Shown in pieces: positions 42,042 to 60,946 of a stretch of 64,000 bases of DNA. The notes beneath the pieces are model-generated. The model did no database searches. It saw only the letters and a program-made list of their open reading frames with translations, and was not told the DNA's origin. Made by a program: the position numbers and the translations under genes. The DNA lies in IMG/VR virus record IMGVR_UViG_3300025769_000069; one strand, 5' to 3'. Positions within the stretch are counted from its first letter, which is position 1. Every line of letters starts with the position of its first letter. The DNA is from a virus.

Positions 42042-42074
42042 TAATTTTCCCGGTGGCGAGGAAGGTGTAATTAA

Positions 42075-44297
42075 ATGGTAAAAAAACCATTTATAATAAA
42101 AGATCAGGAACTGAGAGTCGGTAACAATAGAGTTATTGACTCAGATGGGCAATGGGTTGGATCAACAACTGGAATCTCTGGTTATCAAGGAGATACTGGA
42201 GTTAGTGGTGCTCAGGGTAGGCAGGGTGTAGCTGGTATTCTTGGAGTTGCAGGCTTTCAAGGACCGGGTGGAGCAACTGGTGCTGGGGGTGCTCAAGGTG
42301 TCCAAGGTTCTGCTGGATCAGCTGGTCCTCAAGGTTTCCAAGGTCGACAAGGTTTTCAAGGTGTTCAAGGATATACTGGTGTTCAAGGTCCACAGGGACC
42401 TCAAGGATCTACTGGTGCAACTGGTAGACAAGGTGTCGGTGGTGTTCAAGGTGCTGCTGGCCGGCAGGGTGTCCAAGGTGCACAAGGTCCTCAGGGACCA
42501 CAGGGACCACAAGGTTCAAGAGGGCCACAGGGTGGCGCTGGACCCACTGGAGCAACAGGTAGAACTGGTGTTGCCGGTGTTCAAGGTTATCAGGGTGTTC
42601 AAGGCTACCAGGGAACTCAGGGTGCTCGTGGACCACAGGGACCGCAAGGTCCAGTAGGACCAACTGGTGCGACTGGTCGACAAGGTGCTCAGGGTGCTGC
42701 TGGTCGTCAGGGTGTTCAAGGATACCAGGGAACACAGGGTGCTAGAGGACCACAAGGACCGCAGGGTCCGGTAGGACCAACTGGAGCATCTGGTCGTCAA
42801 GGTGGAGTTCCAGGTGCCGGCACAGTAACTTATCAAATATATTCAACTCATGGTGGCAGCGGTAACACTAGTCAATACTCAAATTTTCCTACAAACTCTA
42901 CAAACTTTGATGCGTATTTCAATACAAACTATTCAAACACAACTTTGCACAGCTCTGGTTCAGCTGCAATAACTACAATTTTAAATTGGACAAATTATAC
43001 TACTTTGACTGGTGCTGGAATATCAGTACCAAATTCTGGTAATTATTTTTCTGTAATAGTTTCAGGTACGTTCAGACCTCTTGAAACTGGTACTTACACG
43101 TTTACTGCAGAATCTGATGATGCTATTGACTTGTTTATTAATAATACTAATGTGGCTAGTTTTTATGGCGGAAGAGGTACTCCAGCTTTAGGAACAACTA
43201 CAGGAACCATTTCTTTAACCGCTGGTACTACATATACGTTTAGAGCTCGTACTCAAGAGTATGGTGGTGGCGAAGGTATGAGAGTCTTTTGGAAAAAGCC
43301 ATCAGAATCTGCTGGTTCAACATGGTATCAACACACTGCTGAACTTGGTGTTGCCGGCACAAGAGGACCTCTTGGTTATCAAGGAACTCAGGGTGCTCGT
43401 GGACCACAGGGACCTCAAGGACCGGTAGGACCAAATGGTGCTACTGGCCGACAAGGTGTCGGAGGCGCGCAAGGTCGTCAAGGTGTTCAAGGCTACCAGG
43501 GAACTCAGGGACCACAGGGATCAAGAGGACCACAGGGTTCTAGAGGACCACAGGGAGCAACTGGTAGACAAGGTCATCAGGGTGTTCAGGGTTATCAGGG
43601 TGTTCAGGGTTATCAGGGACCAAGAGGACCGCAAGGCGCTAGAGGACCACAGGGAGCAAGAGGTCCACAGGGTCCTACAGGACCAGCAGGAGCAACTGGT
43701 GTTGGTGGTGCAACTGGTCCTGGTGGACCAGCATCTTACACAGGATATACTGGTAGATCTGGTGTTCAAGGTAAGGCTGGTGCTCAGGGTTATCAGGGTG
43801 CCCAGGGATCTAGAGGACCACAAGGTCCACAAGGAACTTCATCTGCAAGTGGTGGATACAATCCTGCTACTGTTACACATAGCTATCTTTCAGTAAATAT
43901 TGGAGCAGCTTCTCCTACTGGAACAATTCAAGCAACTGGATCTATTACTGCTGGATATTCTGACAAAAGATTAAAACATGAAATTGAAATTATTAAAGAC
44001 GCAGTTGATAAATTAAAGTCTATTACTGGAATTTATTTTAGAACAAATGAAACCGGAAAGAAATTAGGTTTGGATACTGGAAGAAGACAAATTGGCTTGA
44101 TTGCTCAACAAATAGAAGCAATCGCTCCAGAATTAGTAACCAAAGCAGCATTAGCTGAAGAATTAGATAATGGAAATAATTATCTTACTGTAAAGTATGA
44201 TCGAGTAGTTGCTCTATTGTTACAAGCTATAAAAGAACAACAAGCACAAATAAATATATTGAAGCAAAAAGTAGAGCAAAGAGAAGTAAATGGCTAA
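42075..44297 (+). CDS. Collagen-like fibre chain 1 with inserted PA14-like domain and S74 intramolecular chaperone
   Basis: Gly-X-Y at aa 33-242 and 425-589; insert with [27 protein letters not shown]; GYSDKRLK...GLIAQ...V.Y. Confidence 0.88.
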
Positions 44298-45963
44298 GAA
44301 ACCCTTTATAGTTCAAGAAGGAGTTACTGTTAATGGCACAGATGTCATTGACAATACCGGAAAGTGGGTTGCTAGCGCTGTTAATATTAGAGGTCCTCAA
44401 GGACCACAGGGTAGACAAGGTGCTCAAGGACCACAGGGTAGATCTGGATTAGATGGATCTCAAGGTCCACAGGGTGCAACCGGAGTTGCTGGGTTCCAAG
44501 GTCGCCAAGGTGCTCAAGGTGCAGTTGGTGCTCAAGGGATACAAGGTCCTCAGGGACCACAAGGACCACAAGGTGCTCGTGGGCCACAAGGTTCTGCTGG
44601 ACCAACAGGTGCAACTGGAGTTGCAGGTGTTCAAGGTTATCAGGGTGTTCAAGGATATACTGGTGTACAAGGTGCACAAGGTGTTCAAGGTTCTGCTGGA
44701 CCAACTGGTGCTGGAGGTAGAACTGGTGTTGGTGGTGTAACAGGTCCAACTAGTGGCGTAACAGGGTTTCAAGGTTATCAGGGTCGACAAGGTACACAAG
44801 GACCGCAAGGTGCTAGAGGACCGCAAGGACCAACCGGTGTTGGCGGGGTCGGTGGATCCACCGGTGCTTCAAGTAGTGTTGCTGGGTATCAAGGTAGACA
44901 GGGTGCAGTTGGTGCTCAAGGAACACAAGGTCCAAGAGGTCCTCAAGGTCCAACTGGTGTTGGAGGAGTAGGCGGGTCCACCGGTGCTTCAAGTAGTGTA
45001 GCAGGTTATCAAGGCAGACAAGGATCAAATGGTGCTCAAGGCGGGACAGGACCACGGGGACCACAAGGTCCAACCGGTGTTGGAGGAGTAGGCGGATCCA
45101 CCGGTGCTTCAAGTAGTGTTGCTGGTGTTCAAGGCTACCAAGGTGTTCAAGGTTATCAGGGAACTCAAGGTGCTAGAGGACCACAGGGATCGACCGGTGC
45201 AACTGGTGTTGGTGGTGTAACAGGTGTTGGTGGTGTAACAGGTACTCAAGGTGTTCAAGGTCCTCAAGGTTCGCGTGGACCACAGGGTTCTAGAGGACCA
45301 CAAGGTTCAACAGGTGTTACTGGTGTTGGTGGTGTTAGTGGTGCAGCAAGTGCTACTACTGGTCCGACAGGTAGAACTGGTTTCCAAGGCGTTCAGGGAT
45401 ATGCTGGTTATCAAGGTGCTAGAGGACCGCAAGGACCACAGGGTGCTCAAGGTTATCAGGGAACTCAAGGTGCTAGAGGACCACAAGGAGGAGGAGGACC
45501 AACTGGTGTGGCTGGTGCTCAGGGTGCTGCTGGAGCAGTTACTAATACTGCTCAAGTATTAGCATTTGGCGTTGGAACTCCAGCTGGACCAACTGGAGAT
45601 CTAAGAGCATCTGGTAACATTGTATCATATTATTCAGATATTAGATTAAAAGATAAAATTGAATATATTAAAGATCCAAATGTAAAAATAAAGAATTTAA
45701 ATGGTGTATTTTATACTCAAAATGAATTTGCTGAAAAATATGGATACCATGATTATAGAACACAAGTTGGATTAATTGCTCAAGAAGTAAATAAAATATT
45801 ACCTGAAGTTATTGAAGATGCTCCTTTTAACTTAAGAGACAATACAGACGATAAATATTTAACAGTGCGTTATGAACACATTGTTCCTTTATTAGTTGAA
45901 GCTATAAAAGAACAACAAGAAGAAATAGAAGAACTATCTAGGGTATTGTTAAATGGCGACTAA
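44290..45963 (+). CDS. Collagen-like fibre chain 2 with S74 intramolecular chaperone
   Basis: Gly-X-Y at aa 35-417; YYSDIRLK...GLIAQEV...[16 protein letters not shown]. Confidence 0.9.
44800..45140 (+). repeat. Three 120-bp tandem repeats in collagen chain 2
   Basis: TCCACCGGTGCTTCAAGTAGTGT recurs at a 120-bp period. Confidence 0.85.
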
Positions 45964-47635: not shown

Positions 47636-47639
47636 AGAA

Positions 47640-47894
47640 ATGGCAATAGATCTTTCTACACAAGATATAGAAACACATTCTAAAGAAGGTTTCTTCAATG
47701 AAAACGAAACTGCAGTAGACGCTTCAGTAAATGCTTCTGGATGGTGGAAATTAACTATGGTTGATGGAACATTTACAGCAGCAGCAGCTGCTACTGAAGC
47801 TGAAGATGGTGCAACTGTAAATGAAGCAGCGCAATTAGTATATAATGTGGATGAAACAACTATTCATATGTATGTTAATTTTAACGTAGAATAA
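47640..47894 (+). CDS. Small acidic hypothetical protein
   Basis: Operon context between the collagens and the enzymes. Confidence 0.65.
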   Translation: MAIDLSTQDIETHSKEGFFNENETAVDASVNASGWWKLTMVDGTFTAAAAATEAEDGATVNEAAQLVYNVDETTIHMYVNFNVE

Positions 47895-47916
47895 AATTTA
47901 ATTTTTGAGGTGATTT

Positions 47917-48495
47917 ATGGCATGGCAAGGTGATTGGTGTTATTTTGAATCGTATTTAAATAAACAAGACTGTGAAGAAATAATCGCTCAAGCAAAACTA
48001 TTACCATCACAAGATGCAGTAGTTGGTTTGGGTGAAGATGCTCATCTTACGGAATATCGTAAAAGTAAAGTATCATTTATTCAAGCAGGTGATTGGAGAT
48101 TTCAAAAATTATTTGATGCTTTATGGAAAACACAAATTCAAGCAAATAAAGATTTCTTTAATATCCACGTTAATAGACTTGATTTTGTACAATTTGCAGA
48201 ATATGATGCATCTATTCAAGGCGAATATAAAGAGCATGTAGATACTTTTTGGATGAATGGCGATCCAACACATCATAGAAAAATATCATGTGTATTGCAA
48301 TTATCGGATCCAAATGACTATGATGGTGGTGATTTAGAAATTGTAGATTCTTCTAATCCACCAGATCCAAAAGATTACAGAGCTCAAGGAACTTTTATCT
48401 ATTTTCCTTCAGTCTTAAAACACAAAGCAAATCCAGTTACGAGAGGAACTAGATATAGTATTGCTGCGTGGTTTGAAGGCCCTAAATGGATTTAG
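47917..48495 (+). CDS. 2OG-Fe(II) dioxygenase (prolyl-hydroxylase-like)
   Basis: HVD...RKIS..LQLS...YDGGDL...FPS..KH.A.PVTRGTRYS. Confidence 0.9.
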   Translation: MAWQGDWCYFESYLNKQDCEEIIAQAKLLPSQDAVVGLGEDAHLTEYRKSKVSFIQAGDWRFQKLFDALWKTQIQANKDFFNIHVNRLDFVQFAEYDASIQGEYKEHVDTFWMNGDPTHHRKISCVLQLSDPNDYDGGDLEIVDSSNPPDPKDYRAQGTFIYFPSVLKHKANPVTRGTRYSIAAWFEGPKWI

Positions 48496-49220
48496 CGCAA
48501 GCAAAAGAGTATGATGTTCCTTTTAAATACTTCGTGATAGACAATTTTTTAAAAGCTGATTTAGCACATACTTTATCAAAACAGTTCCCTTCACATTCTT
48601 CTAAAAAATGGTTTGCTTATGACAATCCATTAGAAAGAAAAAAGGCTATTCAAAACTGGGGATCTTTTCCACCGGAAACTTATCAGTTATTTTTATCATT
48701 ATGTTGCGAAAAGTTTACTGATAAATTAAGAAAGCTAACCGGGGATGCATGTCTTAAGCCTGATTATGGATTACATGGTGCTGGTTGGCATATGAGCAAA
48801 AGTGGAGATCATTTAAATATTCATCAAGATTATTCTATTCATCCACTAGCTAATATGCAAAGGAAATGGAACATTATAATCTATCTTACTCCAAACTGGA
48901 AAAAAGAATGGGGTGGAAATTTAGAATTTTGGAGCCATAATGAAGAATTAAATCAAGCAAAGAAAAAAGAAGTATCTATTGATTGTGTATTTAATAGAGC
49001 TGTTTTGTTTGATACCACTCAAAATTCATGGCATGGATTTCCAGAAACAATTAAATGTCCTCAAGGAATATACCGAAAAAGCATTGCAATGTATTATTTG
49101 TCGCCAATACAAGAGAGTGCTGTTGATAGACCTAGAGCATTATATAGTCCACGAGAAGATCAAATAAATAACGATAAGATCCTTGAATTTATTAAGAAAC
49201 GTGCTGAGAAAACATCATGA
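48486..49220 (+). CDS. 2OG-Fe(II) dioxygenase
   Basis: GAGWH, IHQD, YLTPNW...WGGNLE.W, FNRAVLF, SWHG, RKSIAMYY. Confidence 0.9.
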   Translation: MDLAQAKEYDVPFKYFVIDNFLKADLAHTLSKQFPSHSSKKWFAYDNPLERKKAIQNWGSFPPETYQLFLSLCCEKFTDKLRKLTGDACLKPDYGLHGAGWHMSKSGDHLNIHQDYSIHPLANMQRKWNIIIYLTPNWKKEWGGNLEFWSHNEELNQAKKKEVSIDCVFNRAVLFDTTQNSWHGFPETIKCPQGIYRKSIAMYYLSPIQESAVDRPRALYSPREDQINNDKILEFIKKRAEKTS

Positions 49221-50944
49221 ATAAAGAATGTAAAATTGTTATGGTAGCCATGTTTAAGAACGAAGCACATGTTCTTCGAAACATGCTTGATTCTGTAGTT
49301 GGATATATTGATTATTATGTAATTCAAGATAATGGATCTACAGATGGTTCTCCTGATATTGTAAATGAATGGGCTGCTGAGAATAATATTCCAGGTGTTC
49401 TTTATAAAGTTGAAGAAGGCTGGAAAGGATTTGGCTGGAATAGAGATCATTTAATTCGTTATTGCCAAAATGAAGTCGATCATGGTTGTGATTGGATTCT
49501 TAAAATGGATTGCGATGAAACATTAGAAGTTTATGATGATTTTGATTGGTCCGTATTTAATGATAAAACAGTTCATGGATTTAATATTCCAGCAATTTCT
49601 GGTTCAGCTGTATATTATAGAACATGGTTATGGAATGCAAATATGCAATGGGCGTTTAACCACGATCCATGCCATGAAACCATTTATTGTTTAGATCCAG
49701 AAATTGACCATGAATATAATACTTATCCGCTTCAAATAGGGTTTAATCAAATTGGATCAAATTCTGGAATGTCTTGGTCAGTTCCAACTAAATTTATTTC
49801 AGATTCTCTTGTACTTGAAGAAAAACTTATTCGTGAGCAAAATCTTTTAGAAAATATGTATCACTTTTGGTATATTGGTAAAAGCTATAGAGATGCAATG
49901 GAATCATCTGCATTTCCATTAGAAAAAAGACATGCTGATGAATATGCTAGACGATCAATTTGGTATTTAAATGAATATATTACTAAAGTTTTTAAAGATA
50001 AAAATGGTAATGTAGGTGTGGATGAGATGTGCTATATGGCTGGCATCATGGCAGCTGAAGCATATATTTTTATGGGTAAAAATGAAGAAGCTATTACTAC
50101 ATTAAAACCATTAGAAAGATTTGCTCCTGGAAGAAACGATCATCTATGGATGCTAGTAAAATTATATAAAGAAACAAAACAATATGATAAAATGCTAGAA
50201 ACAACAACAGTGATGATGGATCCGGATCGCAAGTTTCCATTTCCTCAATACTGCAATTTTATTGATCGGCAGCATTATGTTGATGGAACCGGGGATGTAC
50301 AAAGGTTACATGGTGAAGCTTTACAATTAGTAGAATGGCATTCAACTGAAGAAAAAGAATCTAATAATATATTTTCAATTAATAAGATTCCAACAAAAAG
50401 AGTTTGGGTTGTAGATAATTTTTATGAAAATCCTTATGAAATTAGAGATTGGGCTCTTAATAATCTAACCTTTGAAGACGGATCTGAGTGGTACAAAGGA
50501 TATAGATCTTTAGAAAAATATAGACCAATAGAACTTAAACATAAATTTGAAAATATTATTGGAGAGAAAATTGTAGATTGGGAAGGTGGTATGAATGGAG
50601 TTTTCCAAGTAACTCGTGCTTCTGACCCACAAGTTTGGCATTTTGATGAACAGCGTTGGGCTGGTATGATTTACTTATCACCTGATGCACCATATGAGAG
50701 CGGAACTAGGCTTCATATTTCAAAGATAAATAATGCTAGACATAGTATAGAAGATGCTGATATTATCGACGGCGCATTTAATGGAAACTTTTTTGATTCA
50801 ACTAAGTTTCATAATGTTGATATAGTCGGCAACATTTTTAATCGCCTTGCTATCTTCGATGCAAGACATATCCATTCTGCTGGAGAGTATTTTGGATCTG
50901 ATTTAGAAGATGGTAGACTTACACACTTATTCTTTTTTGACTAA
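49217..50944 (+). CDS. GT2 glycosyltransferase, TPR-like region and C-terminal 2OG-dioxygenase-like domain
   Basis: KNEA, DNGSTDGS, GFGWNR, DCDE (DxD); helical middle; VVDNFYENP...HFD...YLSP...FNRL...HSA...RLT. Confidence 0.82.
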   Translation: MNKECKIVMVAMFKNEAHVLRNMLDSVVGYIDYYVIQDNGSTDGSPDIVNEWAAENNIPGVLYKVEEGWKGFGWNRDHLIRYCQNEVDHGCDWILKMDCDETLEVYDDFDWSVFNDKTVHGFNIPAISGSAVYYRTWLWNANMQWAFNHDPCHETIYCLDPEIDHEYNTYPLQIGFNQIGSNSGMSWSVPTKFISDSLVLEEKLIREQNLLENMYHFWYIGKSYRDAMESSAFPLEKRHADEYARRSIWYLNEYITKVFKDKNGNVGVDEMCYMAGIMAAEAYIFMGKNEEAITTLKPLERFAPGRNDHLWMLVKLYKETKQYDKMLETTTVMMDPDRKFPFPQYCNFIDRQHYVDGTGDVQRLHGEALQLVEWHSTEEKESNNIFSINKIPTKRVWVVDNFYENPYEIRDWALNNLTFEDGSEWYKGYRSLEKYRPIELKHKFENIIGEKIVDWEGGMNGVFQVTRASDPQVWHFDEQRWAGMIYLSPDAPYESGTRLHISKINNARHSIEDADIIDGAFNGNFFDSTKFHNVDIVGNIFNRLAIFDARHIHSAGEYFGSDLEDGRLTHLFFFD

Positions 50945-50946
50945 AC

Positions 50947-51678
50947 ATGATAAACAATCAAATCCTTTCAGTACTAGACACATCGATTGCCTCTTATAGA
51001 GAAGCATACCCCTTTCCTCATACCATATTAGATAATTTCTTAGATCCTTGGATCCTAAAACAAGCTATACCTGAAATAGAAAACTATCAACACTGGAGAC
51101 AAGATAACACAGAATGGGTAGAAGACTATCAAATTTTAAAACAATACGCTCCTGATGTGGTAGCAGTTCCAGATGATGTGGAAATCTTAGGTAAGTATGC
51201 TCCAAAAACAAAACTTATTTTAGATTATATGTATTCTGAAACAGTAATAAACTTTCTTCAAGATTTAACTGGTATTCAAGGATTATTACCCGATGAAAAC
51301 TGGTTAGGCGCAGGAATACATAAAATTTCAAGAGGTGGGAAGTTAGGTATCCATGCAGATTTTAATGTAAATTTTGTTAACAACCTTCATCGTAGAATTA
51401 ATGTTTTGATTTATTTAAATGAAGATTGGAATCCAGAATGGAATGGACACCTTGAATTATGGGATAAAGATTTATCAAAATGTTGTGTTAAAGTAGAACC
51501 TATTTTTAATAGAGCAGTAATATTTAATATCACAGACGACGCATTTCATGGACATCCAGAGCCTCTCCAGTGTCCTGAAACTGTATCCAGATATTCACTT
51601 GCATTATACTATTATACGCAAGATAGACCAGAAGAAGAAAAATCAGATCCACATGCGGTTATTTGGTACGACACGTAA
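50947..51678 (+). CDS. 2OG-Fe(II) dioxygenase (paralogue of 48486)
   Basis: PFPH, GAGIH, IHADFN, RRIN..IYLN, FNRAVIF, FHGHP, RYSLALYYY. Confidence 0.9.
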   Translation: MINNQILSVLDTSIASYREAYPFPHTILDNFLDPWILKQAIPEIENYQHWRQDNTEWVEDYQILKQYAPDVVAVPDDVEILGKYAPKTKLILDYMYSETVINFLQDLTGIQGLLPDENWLGAGIHKISRGGKLGIHADFNVNFVNNLHRRINVLIYLNEDWNPEWNGHLELWDKDLSKCCVKVEPIFNRAVIFNITDDAFHGHPEPLQCPETVSRYSLALYYYTQDRPEEEKSDPHAVIWYDT

Positions 51679-51685
51679 TTTAGTG

Positions 51686-51714
51686 GTTTACATTCCAGAA
51701 AAACAGTATATAAT
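51686..51714 (+). promoter_or_regulatory. Sigma70-type promoter inside the late region
   Basis: GTTTACA (51686-51692), 16 bp, TATAAT (51709-51714), intergenic. Confidence 0.6.
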
Positions 51715-51749
51715 AAAAGTATAGACTTTTCAAACCAGGATAGTATATT

Positions 51750-53012
51750 ATGAAATTTAGTATTATTACACCTGAACATGATCCAGGAAATATTCCTTTT
51801 CTTTTAGAATTATTTGATTGTGTTCTTAATCAAACATACAAAGATTGGGAATGGATTTTATATTTAAATAATAAAATTCAAGTTGAGCATATTCCGGATC
51901 AAATTAAAAATCATCCTCAAGTAATTGTATTTAGGACTCATGATACTGATACAAATATTGGTGCAATCAAAAACGCAGCATTTAGTATTGGCACTGGCGA
52001 TGTTTTAGTAGAAGTAGATCATGATGATTTAATTACTCCAGATTGTTTGGAAGAATTAAAAAAAGCATATGAATCTGATCCAGAAGTTGGATTCGTATAC
52101 AGTGATAATGCTGTATTACAAATGGAAGGCGAGTTTATTCCATATGATTCATCCGGCGGCTGGACATGGCGTGAATTTGAATGGAAAGGCCAGACTTTGC
52201 CAGCAATGCATAGTTTTGAACCAACCGCTCAAGCTTTAAGCTACATATGGTATGCTCCAGACCATGTTCGTTCTTGGAGAAAAGAAGTCTATATTGAAGT
52301 TGGTGGACATAATCCCGAGCTTTCTATTTGCGATGACCATGAACTTATGATGCGCACATATCTCATTACTAAAATGAAACGTGTACCAAAAGTCCTTTAC
52401 ATTTACAGAATTACTGGTAATAATACATGGTTAGAGCGTAATGAAGCAATTCAAGTAAAAACTGTAGATCTATTTAGAGAATATGGCCAAAGGCTAGCAG
52501 AAAGAGATGCTCAGCATCGAGGATTATTATGTGTAGATATTGGTGGAGGTTTAAATCCATATCCTGGTTATCATACTGTAGATATTCGTGAAACAGCAGA
52601 TACAGTAGCTGATTTAAATAATGGAATCCCATTACCTGATAATAGTGTTGGTGTGTTAAATGCAAGTCATATATTAGAACACTTAGAAGATAAAACAAAA
52701 ATCATGGGTGAAATTCATAGAGTATTAGCTCATGGTGGTTGGGCCTTTATTGAAGTTCCAAGTACAGATGGACGAGGAGCATTTCAAGATCCAACACATG
52801 TAAGTTATTGGAATGAAAATAGCTTCTTATATTATACAGATAAATACTTAGGAGATTTTATAGATAATGATTCAATTCGTTTTCAAGAATTTCGTAAAGA
52901 AACATATTATCCAAATGAATGGATGCAAAATTTACAAGTGTTGGTCACAACCGCATGGCTAACAGCAGTAAAACAAGATGAACCGCGATACCCGCATGTT
53001 TTGAATATTTAA
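51750..53012 (+). CDS. GT2 glycosyltransferase fused to class I SAM methyltransferase-like domain
   Basis: FSIITP, QTYKDWEW, EVDHDD, DDHEL; then DIGGG, SHILEH, EIHRVLAHGG, DPTH. Confidence 0.85.
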   Translation: MKFSIITPEHDPGNIPFLLELFDCVLNQTYKDWEWILYLNNKIQVEHIPDQIKNHPQVIVFRTHDTDTNIGAIKNAAFSIGTGDVLVEVDHDDLITPDCLEELKKAYESDPEVGFVYSDNAVLQMEGEFIPYDSSGGWTWREFEWKGQTLPAMHSFEPTAQALSYIWYAPDHVRSWRKEVYIEVGGHNPELSICDDHELMMRTYLITKMKRVPKVLYIYRITGNNTWLERNEAIQVKTVDLFREYGQRLAERDAQHRGLLCVDIGGGLNPYPGYHTVDIRETADTVADLNNGIPLPDNSVGVLNASHILEHLEDKTKIMGEIHRVLAHGGWAFIEVPSTDGRGAFQDPTHVSYWNENSFLYYTDKYLGDFIDNDSIRFQEFRKETYYPNEWMQNLQVLVTTAWLTAVKQDEPRYPHVLNI

Positions 53013-53023
53013 AAGGTGAATGA

Positions 53024-54046
53024 ATGAAAAGAATTTTAATTACTGGTGGTGCTGGTTTTATTGCCCATCATCTAATTGGTCAAGTACTTAAAAGAACTGA
53101 TTGGGAAATTGTTACTCTAGATCGTCTAGATTATAGTGGTAACTTAAACCGCTTGCACGATTTATTGCAAGATTATACTCCAGCAGAACGTAAAAGAGTT
53201 CGCACAATTTACCACGATTTTAAAGCTGAAATTAACCCAATGCTTAAATCTGACATTGGTAAAATTGACATCGTTGCTCATTTAGCCGCTGGTTCTCATG
53301 TTGATAGATCCATTGAGAGACCAATGGAATTTGTTATGGATAATGTTGTTGGCACATGTAATGTATTGGAATTTGCCAAACAGCAAGATAATTTAGAACG
53401 CTTTTTATATTTCTCAACTGATGAAGTATTTGGGCCCGCCCCTGATGGAATTAAATATGATGAGTATGATCGTTATAATTGTACTAATCCATATTCCGCA
53501 TCAAAAGCTGGTGGTGAAGAACTAGCAGTCGCTTATCAAAATACTTATAGCATGCCTATATACATTACACACACAATGAATGTATTTGGACAAAGACAAC
53601 ATCCAGAAAAGTTTATTCCTCTTTGTATTAAAAAAGCGAGAGATGGAGAAACAGTAACAATTCACAGTGATGCATCTAAAACTATACCAGGATCGCGCCA
53701 TTATATTCACGCAGAAGATGTAGCTGATGCTACTTTATTCTTACTAGAAAATAAGAATACTTTAGATATGACAAACAACTCTGGCATTAAATGCCCTAAG
53801 TTTAACATCTGTGGAGCTACAGAAATAAATAACCTAGAATTAGCACAAATGATTGCTGATGCTCAAGGAAAGGAATTATATTATGAATTTATGGATTTCC
53901 ATTCTAGCCGTCCTGGCCATGATCTTCGTTATGCTCTTAGTGGGGATCGTATGGCGCGGATGGGTTGGAGTCCAAAAAGAGTTGAACGAAGAATTGAAGA
54001 AGTTGTGCGATGGACTTTAGAAAATGATAGATGGTTAATGATTTAA
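53024..54046 (+). CDS. rmlB: dTDP-glucose 4,6-dehydratase (RmlB-like)
   Basis: ITGGAGFI, AAGSHVDRSI, STDEVFG, YSASK, QHPEKFIP, RPGHDLRY. Confidence 0.9.
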   Translation: MKRILITGGAGFIAHHLIGQVLKRTDWEIVTLDRLDYSGNLNRLHDLLQDYTPAERKRVRTIYHDFKAEINPMLKSDIGKIDIVAHLAAGSHVDRSIERPMEFVMDNVVGTCNVLEFAKQQDNLERFLYFSTDEVFGPAPDGIKYDEYDRYNCTNPYSASKAGGEELAVAYQNTYSMPIYITHTMNVFGQRQHPEKFIPLCIKKARDGETVTIHSDASKTIPGSRHYIHAEDVADATLFLLENKNTLDMTNNSGIKCPKFNICGATEINNLELAQMIADAQGKELYYEFMDFHSSRPGHDLRYALSGDRMARMGWSPKRVERRIEEVVRWTLENDRWLMI

Positions 54047-54058
54047 AGGAATAAGATA

Positions 54059-55468
54059 ATGTTGAATTTAGGAAAACTACCAGCATCAGTTGAACAACAA
54101 CGGATGACACACAAAGAAAATATTGAGAAACAATCGGCAACAAGCGCGCCACTAGAAGCGCGATCAGAACGTCAAGTTCAAGGTGCGCTGACTCCAAAAG
54201 AAATTTTTGAACGACATGGAATGTGTGTAATTACAGAAGTTGTTAATGAAGAAGAATGTAAAAAACTTTCAAAGCACATGTTCGATTTATTTGAACAAGG
54301 AAAATTAAGTAAAGATCCTCAGTGCCCTCTTTCTGATTCAATATATGGTGATCCAATTTGGGATAAGATGCTAGAAGATTTTGCAAAACCAATCGGAGAA
54401 TATATTGGTTATGAACTTCTTCCAACATACACATATGCTAGAATTTATAGAAAAGGTGAAGAATTAAAAATTCATAAAGATCGTCCTTCATGCGAAATCA
54501 GCGCTACGATGACGATTGATTTCGCTGATTATCCAATTTGGCCAATTCATATGGGCAGTGAACGTAATGTCATCATAGATAGAGGTGATATGATTGTTTA
54601 TAAAGGATGCGAATTGGATCACTGGAGAGATCCATTTAAAGGCGAATGGCAAGTTCAAGTATTTTTCCATTATGTTGATGCAAATGGACCCCATAAAGAT
54701 CTGCATAAAGATGGAAGAAATAATTTAGGTGAAAAGAAAGAAAATCCGGCAGAAAGACCTGAACCTGATATTTTCAAAGATTTAAGAGGATATGCTAATC
54801 AGCAGCTTATGACATTTGGAAATCTTCATCATAACGGTTTTACTGTTTTAAATTCTCATGATTATGATGTTCCTGGTTATATGGGAATTGAGCCAGATGA
54901 AACAAATCATGATTTTACACTTACACCTGAAGATTGTAAACTTTTAATAGATGAAATTGTTAATAAACAATATGCTGTAGATGCCGGCGTTGGATCCAAT
55001 ATGACGGGTTCTTCAGTTACAAAAGAAATTAGAAGTTGTAAAATATATGCTATTCCAAAAGACGAAAGATTTATTCATATCTATAACAAAATTATTTCTT
55101 CGGTTTCTATAGCAAATAAGTTTTATTATGACTTCGAATTAACTGGATTCTTAGGAGAACTTCAATTACTAGAATATAAACATGATGAAAACTCTAGCGT
55201 TCCAGATCATTATAATTGGCATGCTGATTGTGGCCCTGGTGAATCTGCAACTAGAAAACTATCCGTAGTTGTACAATTAACAGATCCTTCAGAGTATGAA
55301 GGGTGCGAACTTGTTATAAATAACAATGGAATGGAACTGGAAGCTTCCAAAAAGCAAGGGACAATTAATATGTTTCCAAGCTACTCTATACACACAGTGA
55401 AACCTATAACAAAAGGAACAAGACATTGTATAGTTGTTTGGATTCATGGAAACAAACGTTTTAGATAA
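54059..55468 (+). CDS. Tandem double 2OG-Fe(II) dioxygenase
   Basis: Domain 1 PTYTYARIY..HKDRPSCE..HWR; domain 2 WHAD..RKLS..FPSY..HTVKPITKGTR. Confidence 0.88.
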   Translation: MLNLGKLPASVEQQRMTHKENIEKQSATSAPLEARSERQVQGALTPKEIFERHGMCVITEVVNEEECKKLSKHMFDLFEQGKLSKDPQCPLSDSIYGDPIWDKMLEDFAKPIGEYIGYELLPTYTYARIYRKGEELKIHKDRPSCEISATMTIDFADYPIWPIHMGSERNVIIDRGDMIVYKGCELDHWRDPFKGEWQVQVFFHYVDANGPHKDLHKDGRNNLGEKKENPAERPEPDIFKDLRGYANQQLMTFGNLHHNGFTVLNSHDYDVPGYMGIEPDETNHDFTLTPEDCKLLIDEIVNKQYAVDAGVGSNMTGSSVTKEIRSCKIYAIPKDERFIHIYNKIISSVSIANKFYYDFELTGFLGELQLLEYKHDENSSVPDHYNWHADCGPGESATRKLSVVVQLTDPSEYEGCELVINNNGMELEASKKQGTINMFPSYSIHTVKPITKGTRHCIVVWIHGNKRFR

Positions 55469-55482
55469 ATGAAGGGTTTATA

Positions 55483-56439
55483 ATGGCAAAGAAAGCGAAA
55501 AATGAACTGGCAGAAGCGACAACTCCTGCAATGACAATAATTGATAAAGTAGATCAATTTTTGGCATCTAAAGATTATGACAATTTCACCGTACCATTAG
55601 ATGAAGTAATTGGTGGAAAATTTTTAGAAAATCAAGAAAGCTTTGGAGGAAAAACTTTAGCTGAAAATGCTGTAATATGTCAACAAACAATGGACATTGC
55701 ATCTGATCTTCATGAGATTTGGAATCATGGCCATACTCAATTTGCATGGAAACATATTAATTTTTCAGCGCTTGATGACGTTATTAATATGAGACAAATA
55801 TCTGCAGAACTTAGTAACAAAGCAAGTATCTTAAATGGTGCTAAATGGGGCGCTATTGAAACTCAAGTTAAAATTGCTGAATTAGAGTGGAGGCTATCTC
55901 AACTTGATGAAACAAAAAATGAAATGCACAGATTTAAAAAAATGAAAATTATCATGTCTTTGGCTCAAATGAGAGAAAGTGCTGAGGAAAACAAAAGAAT
56001 GCTAGAAGGCACTATGAAAGATATGATTGCTCTAAAAGATTCATATGATCAATTAAATCAAAGGGTTTCGGATATTAGTGAATATGATGTTGAAAAAAAT
56101 CAACCATACCAGCACATGGTGAAATCAATTAATCAGTGTATAAGAGACGTAAGACAATATGGTATGATTTCTAAAGGTGAGCAAGAGTATGCTGAACAAA
56201 TTGGAATAAACCCATCAAAATTGTTAATGGCAATTAAAAATTATTTAGAAAAAGAAGCTATATCAGAATCATGGGACACCAGAGAGCTTAAAATATTTGT
56301 CACTTCATTAGCAAAAGAATTGGCAGAAAATCTTAAAGTTAGTGAAATTAGATCTGAAATGGCCGGATTTAGAGATGAACCAATCGAAGGAGCTTCTTCA
56401 ATTAAAAAAGTAGCACGTTTAGAAAAATCTGAGGAGTAA
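55483..56439 (+). CDS. Coiled-coil hypothetical protein
   Basis: 318 aa, helical and charged; operon context. Confidence 0.75.
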   Translation: MAKKAKNELAEATTPAMTIIDKVDQFLASKDYDNFTVPLDEVIGGKFLENQESFGGKTLAENAVICQQTMDIASDLHEIWNHGHTQFAWKHINFSALDDVINMRQISAELSNKASILNGAKWGAIETQVKIAELEWRLSQLDETKNEMHRFKKMKIIMSLAQMRESAEENKRMLEGTMKDMIALKDSYDQLNQRVSDISEYDVEKNQPYQHMVKSINQCIRDVRQYGMISKGEQEYAEQIGINPSKLLMAIKNYLEKEAISESWDTRELKIFVTSLAKELAENLKVSEIRSEMAGFRDEPIEGASSIKKVARLEKSEE

Positions 56440-56443
56440 ACAA

Positions 56444-56836
56444 ATGGGTCGTTTAGTGGAATATAGAAATCATAGGAATCCATTAGATAAATCTCCTATT
56501 GAGCCGGGATTTATTTCACTTGGCGGTTTAGATCATAATGATTCAGATATGACTTATGTTGGATGGATTAGTGAAATTTTTCTCACTGAAACCTATGTTC
56601 CAGATGGTATTGTATTTTTAGATAGCGCATCATACATTGCTAGATCACTGCAATTAAAGGAAAGTATGCCTAGTGCTTTCATATTCCTTGATAGCGCCGA
56701 TCAGCCTTGGGGATATGACGCAGATGGTTATCCACTAAAGATGAGTGATGATTCATGCGCAGCTGTTGCAATTGAAACTTATAATCATTATGTTTCAACT
56801 TATACTCAAATGGAAGCAGAAGGAACTCTTAGATAA
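56444..56836 (+). CDS. Acidic hypothetical protein
   Basis: GAGGAG RBS; TAATG coupling downstream; four DS motifs. Confidence 0.7.
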   Translation: MGRLVEYRNHRNPLDKSPIEPGFISLGGLDHNDSDMTYVGWISEIFLTETYVPDGIVFLDSASYIARSLQLKESMPSAFIFLDSADQPWGYDADGYPLKMSDDSCAAVAIETYNHYVSTYTQMEAEGTLR

Positions 56837-58308
56837 TGCCTATTATAATGACAGGAAATTCTGTTGTATTTTATGGTGGAGTCCCTTCAGCTCCACCTGA
56901 TACAGCTCCTGTGGCGCCAACTGTATATGGCCCTACTGTTACTCCAACAGTGCCTGCAGCAAGTGTTGGAATTAAAGGCCGTGCCAACGATCAAGCAGAA
57001 ATTAAGATGACTTCCTTTGGCCCATATGGATGGGAGATAGGTCCTGGTTATTTAAATGCAGATTTGAAATTGACAGTTGGAGATGAGCCCTGGGAAATTG
57101 GCAGTGAAAGATTGTATACAATGGCAGGGTTACAATCTCCGCAGGTTCCCTCAGCACTTGTAACCGGCACATACGCCGGTGATGCTGTTGATTTTAATCC
57201 TTTTGCTGTTCCATCTGTTCCTTCAGTTCTTATAGGATCTTTATCAGGGTCTAATATGCCAAGTGGTGTGGACACTTGGTCAGACGGTAGATTTGCATAT
57301 TTGCAAACGATTGGTGGTGGGGTTCCATTTTATCCCTATTATAATCCAGCCTATATCACCCTCCGTGGTGCGAGAATGCCTTATGCTTTAACTACACCAG
57401 CACCATCGTCGACAGCAAATATCGTTTCACAAGATATTAACCCCGCACCGATATTCCTCGCTGGTGGGTATCTAGCACAAAGCTATGGCGCAACAAGAGT
57501 TGCTTCTGCTCCAAGCAATGCATATTCCACCACTCTGAATTTTAAAATTCCAAGGTCTCCTGGAACACCGTGGGCAACCGCATGGAACGGATCTATGGAA
57601 GCCAGCCGGGTAAAATTTCCATACGCTGGTCAAGTATCAGTAGCGATACCTGTCGCTCCATTAGCACCATATGGCGCCCCAGCATATAGCGCGTATAGAA
57701 CTACTAGTCGAGCCGACCATACTAGATATACTAATAATGGTCATATACATACAGGCCCACGCCAAACGGAATACGGCAACACCGGAGGCACTTTAAAATT
57801 TAATAGGTACTCAACTGCGTCAGAAACTGATTGGGAAACTACAGCAACAATTAGTTTAGGTAGCCAGCCACATAATATTTGGACAACTCCAACTTATGCT
57901 AACACTCCATACCAACCATATACAGGAGGCAACTACGGCCATGTCGACGGTGGATTTACTGTAGAATCACCTACTCAAGGTCTTGTTGCGGGCCAAAGTA
58001 GGGTTGCTCCATTCAACCCCTCTACTGGGAGCCTGTTTTGGAAACATATTGGGTGGCCTGGTGCTAGTGGTACAAGTATTACTGGACTTAGATTTTCTAT
58101 TGGTTGGAATCCTCTTACGATGTTAAGCCCCATAAATAAAACAGAATCAAGTGAGGATGCTATGTGGTTCTCTTTTAGTTATAGTAATAATGGTTATGGG
58201 CTTTATAGAATTCCCTATGCAGCATCACCAGACATTTATGTCAATCATACACCTCAAGGGATCGGCTATCGCAGACCTAAAAAAAGCGGCGGGTCGGTTG
58301 TAGTATAA
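56836..58308 (+). CDS. Pro-rich putative beta-propeller virion protein
   Basis: Recurring (F/M/I)P(F/Y)A blade-like motifs; N-terminus MPII. Confidence 0.6.
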   Translation: MPIIMTGNSVVFYGGVPSAPPDTAPVAPTVYGPTVTPTVPAASVGIKGRANDQAEIKMTSFGPYGWEIGPGYLNADLKLTVGDEPWEIGSERLYTMAGLQSPQVPSALVTGTYAGDAVDFNPFAVPSVPSVLIGSLSGSNMPSGVDTWSDGRFAYLQTIGGGVPFYPYYNPAYITLRGARMPYALTTPAPSSTANIVSQDINPAPIFLAGGYLAQSYGATRVASAPSNAYSTTLNFKIPRSPGTPWATAWNGSMEASRVKFPYAGQVSVAIPVAPLAPYGAPAYSAYRTTSRADHTRYTNNGHIHTGPRQTEYGNTGGTLKFNRYSTASETDWETTATISLGSQPHNIWTTPTYANTPYQPYTGGNYGHVDGGFTVESPTQGLVAGQSRVAPFNPSTGSLFWKHIGWPGASGTSITGLRFSIGWNPLTMLSPINKTESSEDAMWFSFSYSNNGYGLYRIPYAASPDIYVNHTPQGIGYRRPKKSGGSVVV

Positions 58309-58322
58309 TATGAGGAAAAATA

Positions 58323-59615
58323 ATGCCAATTAAAATTTCATCAACTGCGAATACAGCAACAATAGAAAATACAGAAGGCACTTCTATTGTCTTTGAATCC
58401 AATAAAATATCAACCGGTGGGGGCTTATTCGTTGATGTTGACCCATCAGCTTTGTCACCTGCGAACATAATTTCGTTTCCCGGACCTGTCAGCGTTAACG
58501 TATCTACTTCTCCCGCTCCCTATCTTGACCCTACAATCCCAGCCCCAAGCAACTATACTATTCCTTCTCCTGCTCCAGTCGTCGCGGCTGGTTACCCACA
58601 ATCGATAATTGAGGGCTATCCAGGATCGTTCTATATAAACGTAAGTGGGGATGCTGCTGGGGTAGAAGTTCCATATAGTTTTACTGGACCAGCTGCGAAC
58701 ACAAATGATCTCTACTTTCCACAACATCCTGCTCCCACGCAAGGAGACTTTATTAGTGGGTCTATAACTTCACCCGGTATCCTTTATTGGTCGCACGCCG
58801 CGGATCAAACAACAGAAACTTATCCAGAGTATTATGAAATAAATCTTCCAAGTTTCTTGTACCCGGCCGGAACCATTCACGTAGAACTTGCTGAAGGTTC
58901 TTACACGCCGCAACCGATTGGATCAACTCCACCATATAAAGTTGGTGGACAATTTTTATCAGGCACATACGATTATCGCGCTCCTGGATATTATGGCATA
59001 CTTGGTTCAGGCCCTCTGGCTAAAGGAGTAAGATTTGCTTTTCCTCAACCAGAATTAATTGCTGGAGGATTCTCTCCAGGTAGTCCAGTTACTTTAAACT
59101 CTGCAACAGTATACATATACAAGAATACCGAGACGGCTGCTACTACATACACTAATTATCAGCTAGCAATAGGTCATCATCCTCAAAATAATTGGCCAAG
59201 AACTAATAGTCTTATCTTTGGATCCACGCCAACTATTCCTCAAGGAGCGACTCAAACAGTAGTATATGGACCAACTCCCCTAGTAGTACCAACAACCGCA
59301 TTGGGTGCATTTACTATTCCTTTTAGTACTCCATTTACTTATCCAGGAACTGGGAGTATTCAAATTACTGCTATTAGCCAAAACTCACCATATAAAGCGC
59401 ATAATATCTTAGTCAAAGAATTGAAGGTACCAACAGGATTAGCGCCCAGTCCCACTGCAATTGCGGCTGAGTGGGGCCCTCCTGCTCCTTCAACGTATCC
59501 AAACAACCAGAGTTATGTTTTTGTTTATCCTGGCAATTCAAATTCATTAACTCCGACAAGTTTCTTTCCAAATATTCAATATGCTAGACCAGTCATTCAT
59601 TTTAATACTACATAG
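58323..59615 (+). CDS. Pro-rich putative virion protein
   Basis: N-terminus MPIK; ADQTTE..E motif; FSTPFTY.G.GSI motif. Confidence 0.6.
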   Translation: MPIKISSTANTATIENTEGTSIVFESNKISTGGGLFVDVDPSALSPANIISFPGPVSVNVSTSPAPYLDPTIPAPSNYTIPSPAPVVAAGYPQSIIEGYPGSFYINVSGDAAGVEVPYSFTGPAANTNDLYFPQHPAPTQGDFISGSITSPGILYWSHAADQTTETYPEYYEINLPSFLYPAGTIHVELAEGSYTPQPIGSTPPYKVGGQFLSGTYDYRAPGYYGILGSGPLAKGVRFAFPQPELIAGGFSPGSPVTLNSATVYIYKNTETAATTYTNYQLAIGHHPQNNWPRTNSLIFGSTPTIPQGATQTVVYGPTPLVVPTTALGAFTIPFSTPFTYPGTGSIQITAISQNSPYKAHNILVKELKVPTGLAPSPTAIAAEWGPPAPSTYPNNQSYVFVYPGNSNSLTPTSFFPNIQYARPVIHFNTT

Positions 59616-59623
59616 AGAATAAA

Positions 59624-60946
59624 ATGCCAATCACGTTTAGACAATATAACGGTCCAACTACTACAGGTTATAACTTTGAAATAGACACGCCCCATGCTGG
59701 TCTAAGGACGATAACTGCGACTCAACCTAATCCAGGACTTCCGCAAGCAACTCCACTTGGTTATCCAAGTATAAGTTTTACAGCTGTGTCATCTCCAGCT
59801 GCACCTCAAGGTGCTCCATTTGCAAACTTTAACGTAAGAGATACTAATGTTAAAGTAATTGCCGGCGCATTTTATTCTAGAGGCAACCGAGACATGATTG
59901 GCGAAATGGGATATTTTACTTGGGGCGTGTCACAATCGCCGACTATTCCGACATACGGCGGAAATATTATGCATACCGATTTTACTTCTCAGACAACTAT
60001 AACTGCTGGAAGATGGAGTCCTAGTATGCCTGGAATATATAAGCCAGGAAGAGCGGCATCACCTACTTCAATATATACTCTTGCTGGCGGCGCGCCTAAC
60101 TTGAATACGGCCACTAGTGGTGTATGGAAATTTCCAAAATCAACTACAACAGTAATTACATTATCACCTTCTACAGCAGCATCACCCGTTACATTTGGCA
60201 CACCAGTTGGAAATACATCTTCAGCTAGAGGAGGCGAATATTGGAGTGAATCTGTGAATGGTAAATATTATCAGGCTGGATGGCCAAACCCAACAATTTC
60301 TATGTATTCAGCTCCATACGCTAGTGATACTAATAGTGCAAGTGTAGGAACTATATCAACTCCGCAATGGACAACTTCTTTTGCTGGGGCGTCACAAGTA
60401 GGAAGTGCTAGAGATTATTCTTTCCATAGATGGGGAATGCAACCAGGGAATCCTTATTATCCCACAACTTCCCCTGGTACTGGTAGAGAAGTTTTTTCTA
60501 GATTACCATTTGCAGGTTATCCATATGGATCAGCTTACACCGTTCCAGATTTAGATATGATGCAAGGATATGGAGATACGCATCATCCATATGGAGGCAA
60601 CCATTTAGTAGCTAGCACTGTGGAAAATGGATATGTGTGGGGTGGATGGTATGGACCTAGCTCTGCTCCGCAGCCTTTTAATCGACAAGTGAGAGTCCAC
60701 CCATGGGCTAATTTTGATCTTAACTATATATTATTAGGTGATTCAAATGTGAAAGGAATAAGTGGCGGTAATGGAAATAATGAAGAAGAAGCTTTATATC
60801 ATGCATACGGCGGTAACTCTGGCAGCCCACACCCAGTATCCCAAGGATACGCATTTCCATTCGCTTCCACATTCCCAATAGCAACAACGGTTCCAACGAT
60901 CGACCATTGGCAGCAAAGCGCAGGTTCTGGCCATGCGCACAATTAG
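59624..60946 (+). CDS. Pro-rich putative beta-propeller virion protein
   Basis: PYASDTN..SVGTI, LPFAG, FPFAST repeats; N-terminus MPIT. Confidence 0.6.
   Translation: MPITFRQYNGPTTTGYNFEIDTPHAGLRTITATQPNPGLPQATPLGYPSISFTAVSSPAAPQGAPFANFNVRDTNVKVIAGAFYSRGNRDMIGEMGYFTWGVSQSPTIPTYGGNIMHTDFTSQTTITAGRWSPSMPGIYKPGRAASPTSIYTLAGGAPNLNTATSGVWKFPKSTTTVITLSPSTAASPVTFGTPVGNTSSARGGEYWSESVNGKYYQAGWPNPTISMYSAPYASDTNSASVGTISTPQWTTSFAGASQVGSARDYSFHRWGMQPGNPYYPTTSPGTGREVFSRLPFAGYPYGSAYTVPDLDMMQGYGDTHHPYGGNHLVASTVENGYVWGGWYGPSSAPQPFNRQVRVHPWANFDLNYILLGDSNVKGISGGNGNNEEEALYHAYGGNSGSPHPVSQGYAFPFASTFPIATTVPTIDHWQQSAGSGHAHN

Follow-up and report, generated by a model that had tools for sequence, protein, structure and literature searches.

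A gene island for collagen-like fibres and candidate fibre-modifying enzymes in a T4-like aquatic myovirus

We analysed a stretch of 64,000 nucleotides from the IMG/VR virus record IMGVR_UViG_3300025769_000069 (hereafter the window), in which an island of genes at positions 42075-60946 had been predicted to encode collagen-like fibres together with their own modification enzymes. The window genes are those of a T4-like myovirus, namely gp32, baseplate hub and wedge genes, genes for VrlC-like proteins (phrog_358) and tail-fibre genes, followed by gp13, gp14 and gp15. By gp15, the nearest isolate is Phage C48C1 (Kyanoviridae; 53%), with cyanomyophages and Melnitz-type phages at ~44%. The 19-kb island lies between a giant fibre gene and gp13 and is co-directional and tightly packed, as originally predicted: its sixteen open reading frames (ORFs) are all on the + strand, and gaps or overlaps between them are at most 37 nt, with the sole exception of a 71-nt gap at 51679-51749. 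In C48C1, a single 594-aa structural protein, which shows only local fibre-repeat similarity to the window fibres, occupies the slot between the giant fibre gene and gp13; therefore, we regard the island as accessory. The gene content of the island is real, and the linkage of its collagen genes to its enzyme genes is strong, being seen across many phage contigs and accompanied by catalytic motifs and fold similarities.

Three consecutive genes encode collagen-like chains (A, B and C), all of which match Pfam Collagen with E-values of 1e-39 to 1e-49 and score above cut-off for Peptidase_S74 (PF13884). Thus, the three collagen/S74 genes of the original prediction were recovered by Pfam, as were its two family 2 glycosyltransferase (GT2) enzymes and its methyltransferase domain. 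Chain A begins with a conserved N-terminal head of ~30 aa, its 125 G-X-Y triplets are interrupted at aa ~321-409 by a lectin-like PA14 insert, and its C-terminus is a Peptidase_S74 chaperone with the autocleavage motif S-D-x-R-L-K, the S, D, R, L and K residues of which are invariant among 13 aligned C-termini. Over the 370 triplets of the three chains, Pro occurs 95 times at the X position and 0 times at Y, Lys occurs once at X and never at Y, and the Y position is occupied by Gln in 54% and by Thr in 16% of triplets. Gln at Y is a constant feature of collagens linked to the enzymes (median 54%, up to 89%), whereas in G-X-Y proteins that lack such enzymes in their vicinity this median is 2% (Mann-Whitney p 6e-4, uncorrected for relatedness).

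The triplet numbers of paralogous chains match within a phage, being 125/122/123 in the window (42075-47635) and 76/76, 148/138, 107/115, 168/168/158, 128/123/124, 79/80 and 86/87 in loci L013, L019, L031, L032, L035, L082 and L089, while they range from 76 to 168 across phages (r 0.94 over 14 adjacent pairs, some of them from near-identical contigs). These matched lengths fit either co-assembly or a common length constraint. The G+C content is 44-48% over the collagen genes (window 42001-48000) versus 32-39% around them, with a strong positive GC skew; since Gly, Pro and Gln codons suffice to account for it, this high G+C content is by itself no sign of foreign origin.

The collagen genes are followed by genes for candidate modification enzymes (Table 1). 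The 2OG-FeII_Oxy_3 domain of 2-oxoglutarate (2OG)-dependent Fe(II) oxygenases scores above the Pfam cut-off in the 192-, 244- and 243-aa proteins (ox192, ox244 and ox243), and DUF6445, at the C-terminus of a 575-aa protein, scores 26.9 bits against a cut-off of 24. A 469-aa protein gave no Pfam match at E 0.01 or better; its C-terminal half, however, matches PiuC-type hydroxylases in PDB and NCBIfam, and its N-terminal, Oxy_3-like half matches viral PF13640 Atlas clusters, with template modelling (TM) scores of 0.84-0.89 on Atlas models. Because these libraries support both halves, the six oxygenase domains claimed for the island are a reasonable count, with three found by Pfam, a fourth by motif and fold, and two in the 469-aa protein by the other libraries. 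All NCBIfam PKHD equivalogs score below cut-off for the island oxygenases, and a literature search on the substrates of PiuC found none. PHROG families labelled 'ferrochelatase' and 'minor coat protein' (phrog_2954, phrog_3531 and phrog_1644) match 2OG-oxygenase-like domains here; an Atlas cluster named 'putative ferrochelatase' is 98% PF13640, and RefSeq cyanophage records label such genes 'minor coat protein'. These labels are likely to be propagated mis-annotations.

The 575-aa protein is a fusion of a GT2 domain, a helical region resembling tetratricopeptide repeats (TPR) and the DUF6445 oxygenase domain. Residues D98 and D100 (the DxD motif) and H475-x-D477...H553...R567 (the iron-binding triad and the Arg that binds 2OG) are invariant in 15 homologues of it, and its AlphaFold (AF2) model has a predicted local distance difference test (pLDDT) score of 81.6, with helices at 192-381. 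In this model, residues 1-324 best match SunS/ThuS, with Z 17.3 over 275-285 aligned residues, which exceeds the scores of other GT-A enzymes by ~2, and residues 385-575 match OGFOD1, a bacterial prolyl 4-hydroxylase (P4H), the prolyl hydroxylase domain (PHD) enzyme PHD2 and PiuC at Z ~14. The Foldseek list for the fusion includes AspH, P3H1 and LH3, in which a helical or glycosyltransferase (GT) domain is joined to a protein hydroxylase. The only PDB sequence match of the N-terminal 324 residues is GmaR, the Listeria flagellin glycosyltransferase, and profile matches reveal clear TPR repeats in longer homologues of the fusion. Judged by the model, both halves of the fusion look most like modifiers of peptides or proteins, the first like SunS/ThuS and the second like OGFOD1/P4H/PHD.

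Loci L057, L060, L061, L063 and L080 encode the two parts of the fusion in neighbouring genes, one for a GT2-TPR protein of about 372 aa and one for an oxygenase of about 193 aa, which argues that the two activities work together; in these loci the order relative to the GT2-methyltransferase gene (GT2-MT, below) is reversed. Outside phage contigs, the complete fusion is nearly absent: bacterial genomes, when scanned, yielded the whole GT2-TPR-2OG arrangement only on two tiny contigs of metagenome-assembled genomes, and otherwise distant DUF6445 domains in actinomycetes. Loci L171-L178 (Nocardia, Amycolatopsis, Streptomyces, Leifsonia and Rhodopirellula) carry a DUF6445-type oxygenase domain alone at 25-32% identity, with no fusion.

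The second GT2 enzyme, GT2-MT, has a class-I S-adenosylmethionine (SAM) methyltransferase domain, and the best profile matches reported for its GT2 domain are the chondroitin synthase GT2 (5.9e-18), TarS and SpsA. These matches are consistent with an enzyme that adds sugars to an existing sugar and carries a domain for methylation. The neighbouring product, predicted to be RmlB, has the FSTDEVFG and YSASK motifs of such dehydratases, so that its STDE and YxxxK signatures stand, but it reaches 245.5 bits on TIGR01181 against an equivalog cut-off of 365, and we therefore call it RmlB-like. The gene was found only in L003, L008 and L065, with a 26% identical relative in the short-chain dehydrogenase/reductase (SDR) family in L082. 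As the predicted deoxyhexose glycan depended on this one dehydratase scoring below its family cut-off, we do not retain it as a supported claim. The 19-residue hydropathy maximum is below 1.5 in every island protein, so none has a segment of transmembrane strength, and no membrane-embedded transferase, flippase, polymerase, priming transferase or undecaprenyl phosphate (Und-P)-linked step was found among the island proteins by Pfam and hydropathy.

The best sigma-70-like match of the island (TTTACA-16-TATAAT, 11/12) lies at window 51687-51714, in the sizeable gap before the GT2-MT gene, and might allow separate, earlier expression of the enzymes downstream. Nine TATAAATA motifs, all on the + strand, occur at window positions 2053, 8878, 17389, 20973, 29351, 35042, 47497, 55315 and 60947. 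They lie mostly just upstream of structural genes, one of them 30 nt before gp13, and the two within the island fall inside the 3' ends of the chain C gene (colC) and the double oxygenase gene. They look like T4-type late promoters, though their total count is not above chance. Elsewhere in the window, the - strand carries a 729-aa ORF (4104-6293) without a PHROG match, flanked by gp32 and the baseplate hub gene.

The whole island recurs in the same order in another IMG/VR contig, L003. Identity to L003 is 85-92% for ox192, ox244, ox243, GT2-MT and the RmlB-like protein, 78% for the GT2-2OG fusion, 76-86% for the neck proteins, 61% for the double oxygenase, 54% for a 318-aa protein, about 52-58% for the collagen chains and 29-35% for the Pro-rich proteins. 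Since the block is conserved with enzymes at 85-92% identity, the island is no chance set of ORFs. By sequence, the enzymes are under strong constraint, while the Pro-rich proteins evolve at a rate usual for receptor-binding parts. A DNA search of 50,697 phage records returned a sole match of 923 nt to the island, in the RmlB-like gene, and the complete cassette in no isolate. IMG/VR contains 80 relatives of GT2-MT at 30-91% identity. Gene maps of their loci, made by BLAST with the window proteins, show the cassette in about 40 loci, consisting of one to three collagen/S74 genes, ox192, ox244, GT2-2OG, sometimes ox243, and GT2-MT, followed by gp13-gp15. In these maps, ox192 is the enzyme most tightly linked to the collagen/S74 genes and usually lies directly 3' of the last of them, and ox243 occurs only in a subset of cassettes. 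Distant loci retain GT2-MT and GT2-2OG, often beside giant G-X-Y proteins (L047, L048 and L065).

As a control, we collected 80 loci by S74-domain similarity alone, 64 of which remained after dereplication and extended at least 2.5 kb downstream. One or more cassette-type oxygenases or GTs were present in the loci of 12/17 collagen S74 fibres versus 3/47 non-collagen ones (Fisher p 6e-7), and GT2-2OG or GT2-MT in 8/17 versus 0/47 (Fisher p 5e-6). In many enzyme-free control loci the S74 fibre lies directly before gp13, in the identical slot. The co-occurrence expected from the original prediction thus holds for collagen with 2OG and GT genes, but does not extend to the Pro-rich genes, which are not core. 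Among GT2-MT contigs that have no collagen within 10 kb, 9/10 have Collagen-family matches elsewhere on the contig, compared to 2/9 of the comparison records; GT2-MT is absent in the seven of the latter that were checked, with G015 and G016 viewed at their +-10 kb loci only. The S74 tree is poorly resolved, with 6/61 inner branches well supported; on it, the collagen-plus-enzyme state requires at least 3-4 changes, and an independent-pairs test had no power. The association also recurs on a different phage backbone, where L083, L084 and L097 carry collagen/S74, DUF6445 oxygenase and GT2 genes in order, away from neck genes and beside genes for a PolB-exonuclease, DnaJ, PhoH, RNase HII and UvdE. 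In L082, three collagen genes, with Thr at Y in up to 38% of triplets, abut a cluster of sugar-nucleotide, GT2-MT and GT2-TPR genes.

Among isolates, only S-CRM01 has GT2-MT; its three collagen fibre genes precede gp13 and lack the cassette oxygenases. In Synechococcus phage Sf-FS3 (L087, PV340856, 2038-10661), a gene for a 2423-aa S74 fibre without G-X-Y repeats is followed directly by two annotated 2OG dioxygenase genes, the product of one being 33% identical to ox192, so the pairing of fibre and oxygenase extends beyond collagen fibres. Synechococcus phage S-SCSM2R (L088, PQ898602, 7690-9555 and 15553-18468), like S-CRM01 a cultured cyanophage with parts of the system, encodes a 'cytochrome c-type biogenesis protein CcmH/NrfG' that shares 46% identity with the oxygenase portion of the fusion. 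This TPR-DUF6445 oxygenase lies ~6 kb from a collagen-repeat protein annotated 'FhaB'; both annotations look wrong.

The 3' part of the island encodes the three Pro-rich proteins of the original prediction, which indeed contain 9.8-13.0% Pro versus 1.3-7.7% in the 20 other tabulated proteins. They have no Cys and little Lys, a composition near that of fibre proteins and unlike that of the enzymes, and all three start with Met-Pro-Ile (window 56836, 58323 and 59624). Relatives of these proteins are almost lacking. We detected no relationship of these proteins with one another or with the C48C1 'structural protein', and tblastn of the 490- and 440-aa proteins against phages gave no match. A word-based search with the 490-aa protein found only a 93% identical copy, and an exhaustive profile search confined the 440-aa family to 5 clusters in 1.8 billion representatives. 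The AlphaFold model of the 440-aa protein, built on a 6-sequence alignment, is unusable (pLDDT 26.5), and a Kelch-like Atlas lead was weak (model pLDDT 0.26) and is not relied on. Of the mapped loci, L003 and L008 alone encode the Pro-rich trio, the double oxygenase, the 130-aa protein and the 318-aa protein, which is the coiled-coil candidate of the original prediction. Because they are restricted to the closest relatives, we do not count these proteins or the RmlB-like protein as core, and their predicted place in a conserved system has to be given up. Most likely, the Pro-rich proteins serve this lineage as rapidly evolving virion or receptor-binding proteins and are not a conserved substrate. 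The 84-aa protein encoded after chain C was considered as a glycocin-like precursor and rejected, since it has no Cys and occurs in the closest relative only.

Table 1. Genes of the island and its two boundaries (L003, closest relative in IMG/VR)
Feature	Position in window	Strand	Basis
Giant fibre protein, 2191 aa, left boundary	35466..42041	+	ORF; local similarity to C48C1 'structural protein'
Collagen chain A, 740 aa	42075..44297	+	Pfam Collagen 2.1e-49, S74 6e-12, PA14 2.5e-11
Collagen chain B, 557 aa	44290..45963	+	122 triplets; C-terminal S74; Pfam
Collagen chain C (colC), 560 aa	45953..47635	+	123 triplets; C-terminal S74; Pfam; 52% identical L003 orthologue
84-aa protein	47640..47894	+	No family match; only in closest relative, 52% identity in L003
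ox192, PiuC/YbiX-like 2OG-Fe(II) oxygenase, 192 aa	47917..48495	+	PF13640 3.9e-16; NF003974 sub-threshold
ox244, P4H-type 2OG-Fe(II) oxygenase, 244 aa, core	48486..49220	+	PF13640 1.8e-16; 35 homologues in cassette loci
GT2-helical(TPR-like)-2OG fusion, 575 aa, core	49217..50944	+	Pfam GT2 and C-terminal DUF6445
ox243, P4H/PHD-like 2OG-Fe(II) oxygenase, 243 aa	50947..51678	+	PF13640 8.6e-18; weak PHD/P4H PDB matches
GT2-MT, GT2 and class-I SAM methyltransferase fusion, 420 aa, core	51750..53012	+	Pfam Glycos_transf_2, Methyltransf_11
RmlB-like NDP-hexose 4,6-dehydratase-like SDR, accessory	53024..54046	+	PF01370/PF16363
Double 2OG-oxygenase, 469 aa, accessory	54059..55468	+	PHROG 2954/61; PiuC PDB, NCBIfam, Atlas matches
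318-aa protein, lineage-only	55483..56439	+	No family match; 54% identity in L003
130-aa protein, lineage-only	56444..56836	+	No family match; 44% identity in L003
Pro-rich Cys-free 490-aa protein, fast-evolving	56836..58308	+	No family match; 29% identity in L003
Pro-rich (13%) 430-aa protein	58323..59615	+	No family match; weak 35% local L003 match
Pro-rich 440-aa protein	59624..60946	+	5 clusters among 1.8 billion representatives
gp13-like neck protein, right boundary	60984..61736	+	phrog_211 8.4e-42; 47% identity to C48C1 gp13

On balance, we lean towards post-translational decoration of the collagen fibres as the function of the island. The idea of a modified fibre is supported by the co-occurrence of collagen with 2OG and GT genes, by the protein-modifier-like fusion and by the lack of membrane machinery for lipopolysaccharide (LPS), while its animal and mimivirus analogy and the place of the Pro-rich proteins in a conserved system do not hold. 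In the mechanism that we propose, the island, as an accessory module within the 'host recognition cluster' of this T4-like aquatic myovirus, would supply three thin collagen-like chains, presumably expressed late and located in the virion, each folded by an S74 chaperone that is probably removed by self-cleavage, and one of them bearing the PA14 insert. These chains would be the substrate of soluble cytoplasmic enzymes acting after translation, before or during assembly, in the following putative order. One or more among ox192, ox244, ox243 and the oxygenase domain of the fusion, all prolyl-hydroxylase-like, would hydroxylate chain residues; the SunS/GmaR-like GT2-TPR half of the fusion would then attach a first sugar to the protein; GT2-MT would extend the glycan and O-methylate it; and, in this lineage, the RmlB-like dehydratase may supply a 6-deoxyhexose precursor. 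Candidate target sites are the Pro at X, the Thr or Gln at Y, or the conserved non-helical ends. More tentatively, and with some doubt, we suggest that many uncultured aquatic phages, mostly T4-like ones, might possess a self-contained cytoplasmic pathway of collagen maturation, in which P4H-like and SunS-like GT2-oxygenase enzymes place hydroxyl-linked methylated sugars on Gln-rich (G-X-Q)n fibres at a kind of residue that no known collagen-modifying system targets (Pro at X, Gln or another one). Such a pathway would be the first one known from bacteriophages.

Several observations weigh against decoration of the collagen fibres. The classical animal sites, Pro or Lys at Y, are not present in the window helices, and both Pro and Thr are nearly absent in the enzyme-linked collagens of L047, L048 and L070, so neither prolyl hydroxylation nor Thr glycosylation of the helix can serve as a mechanism common to all. 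Roughly one GT2-MT locus in three lacks collagen within 10 kb, and conversely 5/17 collagen fibres have no enzymes. In S-CRM01, GT2-MT lies near psbA in the early region, about 50 kb from the collagen fibre genes, and the GT2 part of GT2-MT is similar to polysaccharide synthases. The conserved core also excludes several members of the predicted system, namely the RmlB-like protein, the double oxygenase, the 318-aa coiled-coil candidate and the Pro-rich proteins. Finally, given the weak S74 tree, the independence of the associations is unproven, and common ancestry together with the location in a variable island may inflate them.

The main rival explanation is modification of the host surface, in which the GTs, the methyltransferase and the dehydratase would remodel the LPS O-chain or the capsule, for example to block superinfection, and would adjoin the collagen genes as a result of their location in the variable island from VrlC to gp14. 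Host O-chain modification is the published reading for GTs in this region of pelagimyophages and cyanomyophages in the part of PMC7029224 considered here, and the matches of GT2-MT to chondroitin synthase, TarS and SpsA, its place among early or auxiliary genes in S-CRM01, the GT2-MT loci without collagen nearby and the fact that RmlB-type enzymes are typical of O-antigen pathways are all in agreement with it. However, the island has no membrane-spanning protein, flippase, polymerase or priming transferase. Moreover, host-surface modification leaves unexplained the 2OG oxygenases, the presence of one such oxygenase in a single polypeptide with a SunS-like GT2 and TPR, the near-constant presence of collagen on GT2-MT contigs, and the enzyme-free state of non-collagen S74 fibres in the identical slot (GTs in 0/47). 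We consider it unlikely. Somewhat less probable still, in our view, is that the enzymes modify other virion proteins, such as the giant fibre, the Pro-rich proteins or capsid and tail proteins, instead of or besides the collagens. Glycosylated mycobacteriophage virions are a precedent for modified non-collagen virion proteins; the island lies inside the structural gene region, flanked by large fibre genes, and the Cys-free, Ser/Thr/Pro-rich composition of the Pro-rich proteins is like that of exposed virion proteins. The Sf-FS3 fibre gene, which precedes two 2OG oxygenase genes, and the non-collagen S74 fibres with 2OG genes nearby in L100, L121 and L149 point the same way. Nevertheless, the enzymes are widespread, whereas outside the window the Pro-rich proteins are restricted to its closest relatives, and the enzymes track collagen content and not S74 fibres generally.

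It would also be conceivable that the 2OG oxygenase genes serve auxiliary metabolism or repair in general and have no specific tie to fibres, the cassette being inherited synteny. Such genes are numerous in cyanomyophages, with many roles assigned to them in the part of the literature considered here, and the phylogenetic test on the S74 tree lacked power. Yet the island domains are of the P4H/PHD/PiuC type, one oxygenase is covalently fused to a GT2-TPR protein, such genes are found within 10 kb in just 3/47 non-collagen S74 loci, and the trio of collagen, oxygenase and GT recurs in a different phage backbone. We regard this possibility as very improbable; decoration of the collagen fibres remains the reading that we prefer.

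Comparison with known systems sets this reading apart from the pathways on which the original prediction was modelled. In mimivirus, the bifunctional lysyl hydroxylase/glucosyltransferase L230 acts on L71-type collagen. The window phage resembles mimivirus in that a virus encodes collagen-like proteins and candidate hydroxylating and glycosylating enzymes, and its fusion resembles L230 and LH3/PLOD3 in joining a GT-A glycosyltransferase to a C-terminal 2OG oxygenase in one polypeptide. However, the phage helices offer essentially no Lys to hydroxylate (none at Y, one at X). LH3 appears in the Foldseek list only from rank 18 onward with TM 0.15-0.22 (whole-chain ~0.18) and is not among the top VIA rows, the two halves of the fusion are instead closest to SunS/ThuS and to OGFOD1/P4H/PHD, and the phage host is bacterial and the enzymes cytoplasmic, unlike in mimivirus and animals. 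Since the substrate sequons of the LH3/L230 and animal P4H systems (Y-Lys and Y-Pro) are absent, we do not assign the island to either; the analogy with animal and mimivirus collagen fails at the level of the substrate, with Pro solely at X and Lys essentially absent, and the chemistry is no copy of either pathway. PBCV-1 encodes a prolyl 4-hydroxylase, and in cytoplasmic Skp1 (PhyA/Gnt1) a hydroxyproline is formed and then glycosylated. These viral or cytoplasmic P4H-type oxygenases provide a working analogy for what an oxygenase-GT fusion might do, although Pro in the phage is found only at X and is near-absent in some enzyme-linked collagens.

Among bacterial systems, the exosporium collagen BclA of Bacillus anthracis has O-glycosylated GXT repeats with rhamnose-containing glycans and rml genes nearby. 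The phage chains resemble it as collagen-like filaments with Thr at Y (about 16% of triplets in the window), and GT2s, a methyltransferase and an RmlB-like dehydratase are encoded beside them; but their Y position is mainly Gln (54%), not Thr, their C-terminus is an S74 chaperone and not a C1q-like domain, and the enzyme set includes 2OG oxygenases and a single, non-core rml-like gene. The glycocin S/O-glycosyltransferases SunS and ThuS, and GmaR, are soluble and glycosylate a peptide or protein in the cytoplasm. In the model of the fusion, a DxD GT-A fold followed by a helical TPR-like domain is similar to them (Z 17.3), but identity is just 12-16%, the phage enzyme adds a C-terminal 2OG oxygenase, and the phage collagen chains have no Cys acceptor. 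From O-antigen/LPS seroconversion cassettes the island differs in having no membrane-embedded or Und-P-linked components by Pfam and hydropathy. Its position is that of the 'host recognition cluster' of pelagimyophages and cyanomyophages (Zaragoza-Solas et al. 2020, PMC7029224), with which it shares the VrlC-like baseplate-to-neck location and the mixture of fibre genes, collagen repeats and GTs; the part of that account considered here describes no collagen/2OG/GT2-2OG/GT2-MT cassette and no link between enzymes and collagen.

Our literature searches on hydroxylated or glycosylated phage collagen fibres found no report. If the collagen fibres are indeed the substrate, modified collagen would be a product of phages as well as of giant viruses, animals and Bacillus spores, albeit via different enzyme families. 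The island enzymes could also be of use for modifying recombinant bacterial collagens in E. coli. Furthermore, the GTs and 2OG oxygenases of host-recognition islands would then be virion-maturation enzymes and not LPS modifiers or auxiliary metabolic genes, and as such they could affect adsorption, stability and the evasion of host defences.

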